Shown here: positions 9,001-12,000 of the stretch, in pieces
Numbering within the stretch: position 1 is the first letter of the stretch
Layout of the letters: every line of letters starts with the position of its first letter
IMG/VR virus record: IMGVR_UViG_2718218139_000004
Location: 1-16,560 of that record
Direction: 5' to 3' (one strand)
DNA: 16,560 nt
From: a virus
Taxonomy: Duplodnaviria; Heunggongvirae; Uroviricota; Caudoviricetes
Made by a program: the position numbers

Positions 9001-12000
9001 GTCAGTTCCGGACTTTATAGTGTGCTCAGTTCATGGACAAAAACGATTTCTGTGATAAATATTTTGAATATTATTTACAGGTAAATGGAGTGGGGCGCAT
9101 GGATAGAAATATTACAATAGAGTATGAAGTATATGCCCGTATTGTATGGGCAGAGAAGGCAAAAACACGGTAATTCCGTGTGTTGCCATGATACCTGATT
9201 GGCAGAATAGTTGTTTGGTTTTGAGTATATAGTCAGCGTTTTTTGTTCAGTAATTGCCCCCTCAAAAAATAATAAAATAAGGTGATTATTTTTGTTTATT
9301 ATTTAGTTTTTTTGTGTGTTATTTTATTGTTTTTGCGTGGTTTGTTTTTTATTGTTATTTCATTAAGGGAAGGTAAATTCAGGATGGCAGTCTGTAGATA
9401 ATCGGAGGTCACTTATGCTACATGATCACGTGGCAGAATGTCTGGAGAAAAAAGGACTGTACCGGAGAGCAGCTGAACGATGGGCAAAAGTGATGGTACA
9501 GCTAAGTGATGACCAGAAAAGAAAAGTGGCGGCACAGAAACGAGCAGAGTGTTTGCGTAAGGCGCGCCGGACTCCGGTTTCACCGGTGAACCTGACCGAA
9601 ATAAAACAAGCGGTCAACAGACTACATTCTGAGTTGGGAATGGGATTTGAAGAGCGGCGGGTATTCCGACGATATAAAGGGACAGGAGAACAGAATACGT
9701 CCGGAAACGCGCGGTCAAAAAAATGCTAAAAAATATCTGAGAGCGTTATTGCCTGTTACCATAAGAAAAAGCGACTTTAGTGGTCGCTTTTTGTGTCATA
9801 TATAAGTCGTTTAAGTAAACCTGTCTGAACAGGTGCTCTGGTCGTGTTTGTCTTTGTTGGGTACAAATTGAGCATGTTTTTCATTAATTAATCTTCTTCT
9901 GCAGGCTTCAATAACCCACGCTGAAAAATTACCTGAACCTTTCTGATCAAGAGCGATGTTAATTTGTTCAATCATTTGGTTAGGAAAGCGGATGTTGCGG
10001 GTTGTTGTTCTGCGGGTTCTGTTCTTCGTTGACATGAGGTTGCCCCGTATTCAGTGTCGCTGATTTGTATTGTCTGAAGTTGTTTTTACGTTAAGTTGAT
10101 GCAGATCAATTAATACGATACCTGCGTCATAATTAATTATTTGACGTGGTTTGATGGCGTAGATGCACGTTGTGACATGTAGATGATAATTATTATCATT
10201 TTGCGGGTCCTTTCCGGCGATCCGACAGGTTACGGGGCGGCGACCTCGCGGGTTTTCGCTATTTATGAAAATTTTCCGGGAACCATGTCCGGTTTCTCTG
10301 CAAGTTAACTACATGAAAAATATAAGAACGGGCTTTCCGTGAACCGGACATGCGCAAAAAATGGACATATAAACCGGACATGATCGGTTTTGTGCTAATT
10401 GTGAGGTGAGAGTTTTTGCGAGGTGAGGAGTGGCTACGCAGACTGAAGTTGCCAGGCATTTAAGTCTGACCGATCGCCAGCTTCGCAGATTGCAGAAATT
10501 GCCGGGTGCCCCGATATCAAATAAGCGAGGGCAACTGGATCTGGATGCCTGGCGCGATTTTTACATATCGTATCTGAGGAGAAGTAAAAACGATGTGCCT
10601 GATGGCGATAGCGAAGACGACTATGAGGAGAAATTGCTTATTGCCAGATGGGAACTGACAGCAGAACAGGCTGTTACACAGCAGCTAAAAAATGAGGTGT
10701 CAAAAGGAAAACTGATTGACACCGGATTCTGTATTTTTGCCCTCAGTAAGCTGGCAATGGCGTTATCAAGTACGCTTGATTCCATCCCTTTATCCATGCA
10801 GCGACAGTTTCCTGATTTAACACCGCGCCATCTTGACCATCTGAAAACCCTTATTGCGAAGGGGGCAAATCAGTGTGCGCGGGCGGGGGATAAATTACCG
10901 GATTTACTCGATGAATATATCAGAGCAACAACTGAATAATATGATGAGCGCTGTCACAACAGCATCAGAGGATGCGTCCTCGTCCTCGGCTTCTGCGGCC
11001 GCTCAAAAAGCCAGTGAGTCATCACAAAGTGCAGCAGAAGCTGAATTGTCAAGAAAGACGGCAGAAAGTGCAGCCGGTAATGCAGCCAGGGATGCAACGA
11101 CCGCAACAGAAAAAGCCCGGGAGTCAGCAGAAAGCGCACAGTCAGCGGAACAAAGCAGGATAGCGGCGGAAGAGGCCGTAAACCGAATCCCCACCGTGGT
11201 GGGACCTCCCGGGCCAAAGGGGGAACAGGGGCCCGCGGGTCCTCAGGGGCCGAAGGGTGATAAGGGAGAGCGCGGTGACACCGGCCCTGTCGGGGCAACC
11301 GGCGAACGGGGACCGGCAGGTGATGCTGGTCCGGCAGGCCCGCAGGGGCCGAAAGGTGACATGGGAGAGCGGGGAGAGACCGGTCTGACGGGAAATGCAG
11401 GTCCACAGGGTCCAAAGGGAGATACCGGTGCGGCAGGCCCGGCAGGCCCACAGGGACCGAAAGGAGAAACAGGTGCGGCTGGCCCGGTGGGGGCAACCGG
11501 ACCTCAGGGACCGAAGGGCGACCCGGGGGAGACACAAATACGGTTCCGTCTGGGGCCGGGAAACATTATTGAGACAAACAGCAATGGCTGGTTCCCGGAT
11601 ACAGATGGCGCACTCATCACCGGACTGACCTTTCTTGACCCCAAAGATGCCACACGGGTTCAGGGTTTTTTTCAGCATTTGCAGGTCAGGTTTGGTGACG
11701 GGCCGTGGCAGGATGTCAAGGGGCTGGATGAAGTGGGCAGTGATACAGGCAGAACAGGAGAATGACATGAATATACTAAAAAAACTTATGCAGCGTCTGT
11801 GTGGTTGCGGAAAGCATGATGGCCGTGAACACGTGCAGTCGCTTACAGCACAACTGCGACTGGGGCCGGCAGACATCCTGGAGTCAGATGAGAATGGCAT
11901 TATTCCGGAGCAGGACAGGGTAATCACACAGGTGGTGATACTGGATACAGATAAAAAGCAGATACAGTGTGTGGTAAGACCGCTGCAAATCCTGCGTGCT

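Follow-up and report, generated by a model that had tools for sequence, protein, structure and literature searches.

Lambda-like cosQ and cosN combined with a distinct cosB in a decayed Sp4/Sp14-type prophage of Escherichia coli: a probable relic packaging site

Sequence elements for packaging initiation and termination have been described in detail for phage lambda and some relatives. In lambda, the terminase-binding element R3 covers bp 50-65 with bases 55-63 being critical, and in both lambda and phage 21 R2 is inverted relative to R3 and R1 (PMC9026076). To terminate, packaging of the lambda type depends on a second cos (cosQ and cosN) about one genome length downstream, and a lone prophage cos leads to a stalled, tailless and non-infectious particle (PMC4669245); also, lateral transduction is reportedly not carried out by cos phages (PMC12829572). 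Phages N15, with a simple cosB, and Monarch, with a tripartite cosB, agree in their specificity (Feiss et al. 2015, PMC4669245). For prophages Sp4 and Sp14 of E. coli O157:H7 Sakai, cos and Nu1 were aligned with lambda (Asadulghani et al. 2009, PMC2669165, Fig. S8), thereby marking the heptamer of Sp4/Sp14 and lambda as cosQ and the element at the I2 position as IHF. In the same study Sp4, as well as Sp7 and Sp13 lacking head genes, were found in particles, and packaging of the nu1-disrupted Sp4 in trans by the Sp14 terminase was proposed.

Here, we analyzed a stretch of 16,560 nt, in the following called the window, which contains a decayed lambda-like prophage adjoining mdtA in an EHEC/EPEC-type E. 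coli and carrying the effector genes nleH and cif as cargo. According to the annotation of a homologous locus (L001), the locus contains only int, xis, Q, lysis genes, the small terminase gene and type III secretion effectors as cargo, while immunity and replication genes are absent. In the window, the ORFs of int (357 aa) and xis are full length. The statement of an earlier note on this DNA that the head genes are gone agrees with our results: the head and morphogenesis genes are deleted with the small terminase left intact, and the remaining stub of the large terminase gene runs at its deletion junction into the sequence for a tail-fibre C-terminus. At this junction, the BLAST alignment with L001 leaps from position 15036 to 16803 of that locus. 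The features of the cos region and the adjoining genes are listed in Table 1.

Table 1. Elements of the cos region and adjoining terminase genes, with positions in the window
Feature	Position	Strand	Remarks
cosQ heptamer GGGTCCT, packaging termination signal	10205..10211	+	30-24 bp left of nick; identical to lambda, same offset
cosN, 12-nt cohesive-end sequence GGGCGGCGACCT	10235..10246	+	single exact match; nick positions deduced from lambda
I2-type IHF-consensus match TATGAAAATTTTC	10264..10276	+	between cosN and cosB; 2 mismatches to WATCAANNNNTTR; same as lambda
R3-equivalent 11-mer AACCGGACATG	10284..10294	-	bp 50-60 from nick; ACCGGA core bp 54-59
I1-like IHF-consensus match TAACTACATGAAA	10306..10318	-	between R3 and R2; 2 mismatches to consensus; predicted site
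R2-equivalent 11-mer AACCGGACATG	10342..10352	+	inverted vs R3; centres 58 bp apart (lambda R3-R2: 56)
R1-equivalent	10372..10389	.	exact 11-mer 10372-10382 (+) overlapped by degenerate inverted copy 10379-10389 (-)
Terminase small subunit, Nu1 homologue	10430..10939	+	169 aa, GTG start, full length
Large-terminase stub	10911..10965	+	55 bp; deletion junction 10965/10966; L001 annotation

The left part of the site corresponds to lambda. To the left of the nick, 124 of 135 aligned bases (~92%) match the right end of lambda; to its right, bases 1-45 agree completely with the lambda left end (100%), after which similarity collapses where lambda R3 (53-64) begins. The earlier note had stated that cosN and its flanks match lambda and had named an imperfect cosN match as a possible objection; the alignment, matching from -135 to +45, gave 12 of 12 identical positions for cosN. 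The cosQ heptamer lies outside the interval considered there (10226-10430). For the I2 element, the phage 21 record (M81255) labels the corresponding sequence I2. Judged by its sequence, cos is complete, with cosQ, cosN, I2 and cosB all present, and it shares with lambda identical or nearly identical cosQ, cosN and I2, the tripartite order cosQ-cosN-I2-R3-I1-R2-R1 and a small-terminase gene following directly.

The predicted cosB is formed by three exact copies of AACCGGACATG at bp 50-60, 108-118 and 138-148 from the nick. No further copy with up to one mismatch occurs elsewhere in the 16.5 kb, and none of 200 shuffles gave three copies, so the three 11-mers that had been noticed before, one inverted and two direct, are all exact and beyond chance. 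Their assignment to the places of the cosB R elements is likewise supported by the place of the R3-equivalent at bp 50-60, the inversion of R3 and R2 (as in lambda about 57 bp apart and flanking an IHF-like site) and the matching spacing. The R3-equivalent overlies lambda R3, its ACCGGA core falling on the bases critical in lambda, and the I1-like site aligns with I1 of lambda and phage 21 (TAACT...TG conserved). The R1 region differs. The exact copies of R2 and R1 have the same orientation and are spaced by 30 bp, while R1 of lambda is inverted and 46 bp away; the lambda orientation of R1, opposite to R2, is present only in a fourth, degenerate copy, AACCGATCATG, with two mismatches here and one in relatives, where the R1 pair is near-palindromic (AACCGGACATGACCGGTT). 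Since R1 is direct to R2, unlike the rule in lambda and 21, the higher-order complex may differ.

Conservation was assessed with 42 different cos haplotypes, which precede small terminases of 99% identity. As the E. coli prophages that they stem from are closely related and undergo frequent recombination, the following conservation footprint could partly reflect recent shared ancestry. The cosQ heptamer is present in all 42 haplotypes and 11 of the 12 cosN columns are invariant, as are 20 of 24 columns around the I1-like site and all 17 of the R3 11-mer with six flanking bases. Mean minor-allele frequencies were 0.026 for R2 and 0.039 for R1 compared to 0.12-0.15 in the flanking spacers. Altogether, this cos type was found in 750 of 5,426 complete E. 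coli genomes, with a median of two copies in genomes having this cosB type.

The recognition sequences fit none of the three established specificities. The 11-mer AACCGGACATG is unrelated to the lambda R sequence CGTTTCCNTTCT, and no lambda R box was found in the cos region when up to two mismatches were allowed; together with the collapse of the alignment after bp 45 this led us to reject lambda packaging specificity. Phage 21 also combines cosQ and cosN of lambda with a different cosB, and its R core CCGACATG is only a one-base insertion apart from CCGGACATG. A 21-type cosB was nevertheless rejected: there is no BLAST similarity past bp 57, the alignment is similar only in cosN, R1 of phage 21 is inverted relative to R2 unlike the exact R1 of the window, and helix 2 of gp1 differs (RTIERWQS against RQLRRLQK). 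An N15/Monarch-type cosB was rejected as well, as N15 R3 (GAGGTTGTTGTT) and the recognition parts of the small terminase are unrelated. The designation "lambda-type cos" in the earlier note therefore applies to cosQ and cosN; cosB, which on sequence comparison has the lambda layout with other recognition sequences, and the DNA-binding domain of the small terminase are neither of the lambda nor of the 21 or N15 type. Its proviso that a helper phage must match in specificity is correct.

The small terminase is 100% identical to Nu1 of PhiR12_1, but only 34% to lambda Nu1 overall and 32% to phage 21 gp1. The record of PhiR12_1 gives K-12 MG1655 as host; a source paper of the PhiR12 phages was not found in literature searches. 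While phrog_57 (terminase small subunit) matches over the full length, the Pfam profile Phage_Nu1 covers only aa 49-150 and leaves the N-terminal domain unmatched, unlike in lambda. A Pfam search with the N-terminal 56 aa yielded only a sub-threshold match to Sigma70_r3, and comparison of the protein sequence with PDB chains only a meaningless match (E 0.71). A model of the N-terminal domain (pLDDT 87) has the order strand-helix-helix-loop-strand-helix. Its best fold matches in Foldseek, none of which reached an E-value of 0.001, are MerR-type winged HTH domains, with the lambda gpNu1 domain (1j9i) ranking second (TMq 0.61, E 0.46); in hhalign comparisons of the domain family with the domains of lambda, 21 and N15 the HTH was aligned, albeit weakly (E 0.007, probability 5%). 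The model has a winged-HTH-like topology. An AlphaFold model made from the single full-length sequence (pLDDT 64) had poor quality beyond aa 1-50 and was left out of the fold search.

Small terminases with 42-65% identity over aa 1-50 were found in E. coli phage 705R4, Aeromonas phiARM81ld, Enterobacter, Microbulbifer and Azospirillum. Upstream of all these, cosQ is present together with tandem TCCGGT (ACCGGA) at about bp 54-68, while a Pararoseomonas locus encoding a different helix 2 has GGGTTGCG repeats in place of TCCGGT. In the distant bacteria surveyed, the ACCGGA core is always located between cosN and the terminase start. The N-terminal domain and the ACCGGA site travel together. Like N15 and Monarch, one family of DNA-binding domains is thereby associated with simple cosB sites (705R4, phiARM81ld, Azospirillum and others) and with a tripartite one (the window). 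In L082, an R element was lost by unequal crossover, which is the route proposed for N15.

This pairing bears on another reading, in which the 11-mers are operators for a different DNA-binding protein, such as a regulator of late or terminase genes, and are found in the cosB position by chance. The R1 region of relatives is near-palindromic, as many operators are, and the direct R2/R1 repeats are unlike lambda. However, position, nick spacing and R3/R2 inversion all fit cosB, the core tracks the small-terminase domain across distant bacteria, and there is no associated regulator gene; the antisense 66-aa ORF at 10259-10459 had no match in the family search and is treated as spurious. We regard such a chance arrangement of operators as the least probable of the explanations considered, and as hardly credible. 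Literature searches revealed neither a description of R elements nor, in the searchable literature, any binding, bending or cleavage data for this cos class.

The closest match to the site as a whole is provided by Sp4 and Sp14, which share cosQ, cosN, I2 and the cosB start GGGA(T/A)CCATGT and apparently have the same Nu1 (MATQTEVARHLSLTDRQLRRL..., 169 aa), although the comparison used the machine-read text of Fig. S8 with small OCR errors; the small terminase appears to be the same protein as Sp14 Nu1, the scattered differences having to be seen in that light. In the published account of Sp4/Sp14 the R elements were left unannotated. Both cases belong to a pool of defective lambdoid prophages in EHEC in which a member with defective terminase is packaged in trans. 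Sp4 has kept its head genes, and a neighbouring prophage drives its amplification, whereas the remnant has no large terminase, head genes or replication module.

The site is therefore probably the mosaic cos of a decayed Sp4/Sp14-type prophage with its own AACCGGACATG/ACCGGA specificity, a relic at which initiation would most likely be a dead end. From sequence identity, position, conservation and domain-motif co-occurrence we infer how binding, bending and cutting would proceed. The putative winged-HTH domain at the N-terminus of the neighbouring small terminase would bind the 11-mers. A dimer would span an IHF bend to link R3 with the inverted R2 and would place the large terminase to nick cosN. 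Packaging would then run rightwards in the direction of Nu1, nleH and cif. Because the large terminase and head genes are deleted, a sibling prophage with matching specificity has to provide both terminase and proheads for the site to act. The most likely outcome of initiation would then be a headful of nleH, cif and chromosomal DNA, without transfer of the remnant itself.

The earlier note had gone further in suggesting that a matching helper could package the remnant in trans, so that working packaging signals would allow transduction of the remnant itself. What stands of this proposal is the complete cos sequence, to which the full-length int and xis can be added. With a median of two cosB copies per genome, a matching resident helper is also common, and the Sakai prophages Sp4, Sp7 and Sp13 in particles (PMC2669165) are a precedent. 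The proposal, which had already been published in that study, overlooked the need for a second cos and the lack of replication genes. In size the remnant falls far short of what lambda packages, and having neither immunity nor replication genes it could not form cos-to-cos concatemers; no second cos or cosN was detected within ~58 kb downstream in the genome of a related strain, which is not the source genome of the window. The stalled tailless particle of a lone cos (PMC4669245) and the absence of lateral transduction by cos phages (PMC12829572) also argue against it. In addition, decay of the locus is ongoing, with three different rearrangements across strains. Productive transfer of the remnant is thus unlikely, and we give this explanation only a small chance.

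These rearrangements can also be seen differently. All three versions, rearranged independently, still contain cos together with the small terminase and have their breakpoints a short way downstream of these. With int and xis intact and type III effectors as cargo, selection might maintain the cos/small-terminase module, and the remnant would then be a satellite-like effector island exploiting sibling prophages. Against this, a replication or primase module, an Rpp-like redirecting protein and a gene for capsid-size remodelling are all missing; a cos-type phage satellite (PICI-like) had been rejected since the annotation of the homologous locus contains neither a replication module nor a redirecting protein (Rpp). 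Furthermore, in one of the three versions the small-terminase gene is cut short at its 3′ end by IS2, deletions starting in the structural genes would spare cos by chance, and the deletion junction of the window was absent from all 5,426 complete genomes searched. Maintenance by selection is accordingly very improbable in our view. Equally doubtful is that, via the retained module, induction of a sibling with the same specificity starts packaging here and moves nleH, cif and espJ together with tens of kilobases of flanking chromosome.

If this mobilisation reading were true, it would mean a cos-driven transfer resembling lateral transduction, which the current literature denies cos phages. For the preferred reading of a mosaic relic cos, the cos type is already known from E. 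coli O157 prophages, and the trans-packaging idea was published earlier (PMC2669165). A modest new point is that the ACCGGA-core cosB appears to add another specificity class to those of lambda, 21 and N15. The novelties of this class are the ACCGGA core, the unusual R2/R1 arrangement and a DNA-binding domain common to distant Proteobacteria phages with simple cosB, which offers researchers of phage packaging a natural pair of simple versus complex cosB. For EHEC, the site illustrates that prophage remnants keep packaging signals recognisable by sibling prophages. Such retained signals bear on the movement of effector genes and on wasteful packaging during induction, their importance being mainly one of bookkeeping.

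Judged from its sequence, the site at 10226-10430 is an intact cos, and what it shares with lambda appears limited to cosQ, cosN and I2, the IHF-type site between cosN and cosB. A motif search of the window gave GGGCGGCGACCT as a single match, and alignment with the lambda ends (NC_001416) revealed 124 identical bases out of 135 to the left of the nick (about 92%) and 100% identity over the first 45 bases to the right, which bears out the cosN match claimed in the earlier note. Similarity to lambda is lost where the lambda R3 box (53-64) starts.

Features of the cos site and the surrounding prophage remnant (nick inferred at 10234/10235)
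Feature	Position	Strand	Remark
Integrase ORF	1-1074	-	357 aa, full length
Excisionase ORF	1052-1270	-	full length
cosQ, GGGTCCT	10205-10211		30-24 bp left of nick; just beyond the interval first assigned to cos
cosN, GGGCGGCGACCT	10235-10246		single match
R3-equivalent, AACCGGACATG	10284-10294	-	exact 11-mer
R2-equivalent, AACCGGACATG	10342-10352	+	exact 11-mer
R1-equivalent, AACCGGACATG	10372-10382	+	exact 11-mer
Degenerate 11-mer	10379-10389		inverted, 2 mismatches
Direct repeat, TTGTGAGGTGAG / TTGCGAGGTGAG	10399-10410, 10416-10427		just upstream of the small-terminase GTG start
Small-terminase gene	10430-10939		169 aa, intact
Junction ORF	10854-11765	+	303 aa
IS600 transposase-like ORF	14411-15229	-	272 aa
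IS600 transposase-like ORF	15742-16560	+	272 aa, right end of window

Beyond the three exact copies of AACCGGACATG, one inverted and two direct as noted earlier, the window holds none at ≤1 mismatch, and this count was reached in 0 of 200 dinucleotide-preserving shuffles. Position, geometry, conservation and co-variation with the protein all agree with the earlier placement of these 11-mers as the R elements of cosB. The R3-equivalent occupies bp 50-60 from the nick and its ACCGGA core bp 54-59; lambda R3 spans bp 50-65 with gpNu1-contacting bases 55-63 (PMC9026076), so that the core falls within the lambda contact region. R3 and R2 are inverted in both systems, with a centre spacing of 58 bp here versus 56 bp in lambda, and between them lies a predicted IHF site, TAACTACATGAAA (2 mismatches to the consensus), which lines up with I1 of both lambda and phage 21. 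Conservation was analyzed in 42 distinct cos haplotypes from IMG/VR located upstream of 99%-identical small terminases. R3 and its flank were invariant (17/17), and the mean minor-allele frequency was 0.026 in R2 and 0.039 in R1, compared with 0.12 and 0.147 in the I1-R2 and R2-R1 spacers.

A lambda-, phage 21- or N15-type cosB was rejected, since no lambda R box and nothing resembling N15 R3 was found in the cosB part, and similarity to phage 21 is absent beyond bp 57. The R-box core of phage 21 (M81255, 216-331), CCGACATG, is one base shorter than CCGGACATG in window 10284-10382; this likeness, between phages whose small terminases share only 32% identity, may stem from chance, common descent or partial cross-recognition.

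In lambda and phage 21, R2 has the opposite orientation to R3 and to R1 (PMC9026076), whereas the exact R2 and R1 copies here form a direct repeat at a distance of 30 bp. The degenerate inverted copy overlaps the third exact one, and the R1 region in most relatives is AACCGGACATGACCGGTT, a near palindrome, which suggests that R1 may be readable in either orientation. In one IMG/VR locus (L082), R2 and R1 are fused by a clean 30-bp deletion, aligned to window 10343-10373, so that cosB retains two R elements; unequal crossover between direct repeats is expected to produce such a deletion. Loss of an R element in this way is also how the simple cosB of N15 is proposed to have arisen, and L082 is an example of it. 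The second copy of the TTGTGAGGTGAG / TTGCGAGGTGAG repeat holds the Shine-Dalgarno sequence; the repeat is kept in relatives, and another IMG/VR locus (L008) is without one copy.

The small terminase shares 34% identity with lambda Nu1, 32% with phage 21 gp1 and about 31% with N15 gp1. Because the Pfam Nu1 profile covers only residues 49-150 and the first ~50 residues share 42-65% identity with the N-termini of small terminases with other C-terminal parts (E. coli phage vB_EcoM-705R4, Aeromonas phiARM81ld, and prophages of Enterobacter, Microbulbifer, Azospirillum and others), its sequence reads as a mosaic of a distinct DNA-binding domain and a Nu1-type body. Of 11 distant genomes encoding this N-terminal domain, 9 have cosQ and a tandem of TCCGGT, the reverse complement of ACCGGA, ahead of the gene, the tandem just upstream of its start; in phiARM81ld, whose record begins at the cohesive end, the tandem is found at bp 56-68. 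The small terminase of Pararoseomonas baculiformis (L096) belongs to this N-terminal family but differs in helix 2 (TQQAVSALIQR), and in the 300 bp examined upstream of position 1001 four GGGTTGCG repeats replace TCCGGT; recognition helix and site look to co-vary at this locus. By these comparisons, the domain is widespread and elsewhere accompanies a simple cosB. One domain with a simple cosB elsewhere and an R3-I1-R2-R1 cosB here parallels the Monarch/N15 pair. Modelled alone (pLDDT 87), the domain starts with a strand, followed by helix 4-10, helix 15-22, a loop, a second strand and helix 38-52. In structural comparison it came closest to MerR-type winged HTH domains, among them the lambda gpNu1 domain 1j9i (TMq 0.61) and further terminase or Rpp-complex entries. 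As these matches are statistically weak (best E 0.35), like the profile comparison with the lambda, phage 21 and N15 domains, the model is consistent with a winged-HTH fold but does not prove it.

The window holds a lambdoid prophage in an advanced state of decay, beside mdtA of EHEC/EPEC-type E. coli. The homologous locus of strain 2013C-4974 is annotated with int, xis and early-gene fragments; lpxR, Q and lysis genes; perC and ylcI/ynfO; the terminase small subunit, then head and tail gene fragments; and the type III effector genes nleH and cif. Decay is further along in the window: the large-terminase gene breaks off at 10965 after 55 bp, where it runs straight into the C-terminal part of a tail-fibre gene, confirming that the head genes are gone, and the immunity and replication regions are absent. 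None of the complete genomes searched has this junction. The ORF spanning it runs from the small-terminase 3′ end into collagen-repeat and tail-fibre C-terminal domains and is probably a fusion artefact, not a gene. Since the integrase and excisionase ORFs are full length, the remnant may still be excisable; in 2013C-4974, an IS3-family element interrupts the integrase. The window matches the reference prophage as far as 13900, within cif, and has two IS600 copies at its right end. Cos and small terminase are kept in three differently rearranged versions of the locus: the window, 2013C-4974 with more head and tail fragments, and SMN013SH2 (NZ_CP023673, 1253-5629), where IS2 clips the small-terminase 3′ end and the nleH-cif segment is inverted. 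SMN013SH2, at the same chromosomal locus, represents a third independent decay form with cos kept. For the retention of cos, progressive decay from the side of the structural genes is at least as good an explanation as selection.

In lambda, packaging initiation requires cosB and cosN, and termination requires cosQ and cosN (PMC4669245). By analogy, a cognate small terminase would bind R3 and R2 on either side of an IHF bend and place the large terminase to nick cosN, after which DNA would be translocated rightwards; large terminase and proheads would have to be supplied by a sibling prophage of the same specificity. The packaging in trans proposed earlier has a published precedent, Sp4 packaging being attributed to the Sp14 terminase (PMC2669165), and same-specificity siblings are common: this cosB type was detected in 750 of 5,426 complete E. 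coli genomes, and the carriers have a median of two copies. Productive packaging of this remnant is nevertheless unlikely, because replication genes are absent and its size is far under lambda's packaging size, and because in the related genome NZ_CP027587 no second cosN exists within about 58 kb downstream (espJ, yeg genes, alkA, dcd, udk, asmA and the colanic-acid cluster). Furthermore, initiation at a lone prophage cos is expected to yield a particle that is full, stalled and without a tail (PMC4669245), and according to a recent study lateral transduction is not performed by cos phages (PMC12829572). As a termination site, this cos could be used by any lambda-like terminase coming from upstream.

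A comparison with 50,697 phage records found this small terminase in the PhiR12 series alone; Nu1 of PhiR12_1 (host on record K-12 MG1655) matches it at 100% identity, and in that phage a full head operon follows the same cos. Within the limits of machine-read figure text, the small terminase is apparently also the same protein as Nu1 of O157 Sakai Sp4 and Sp14, whose cos was aligned with lambda by Asadulghani et al. 2009 (PMC2669165) in Fig. S8, with cosQ, cosN and the IHF site marked and the R elements unmarked. O157 prophages were already known to have this cos and Nu1 type, of which the site is an ordinary member, and trans-packaging within a defective prophage pool has been proposed in print before. 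Incremental points are the link of this cosB class to a widespread small-terminase DNA-binding domain, the R3-I1-R2-R1 anatomy with an ACCGGA core that the sequences suggest for the class, and its direct R2/R1 arrangement, which appears unusual.
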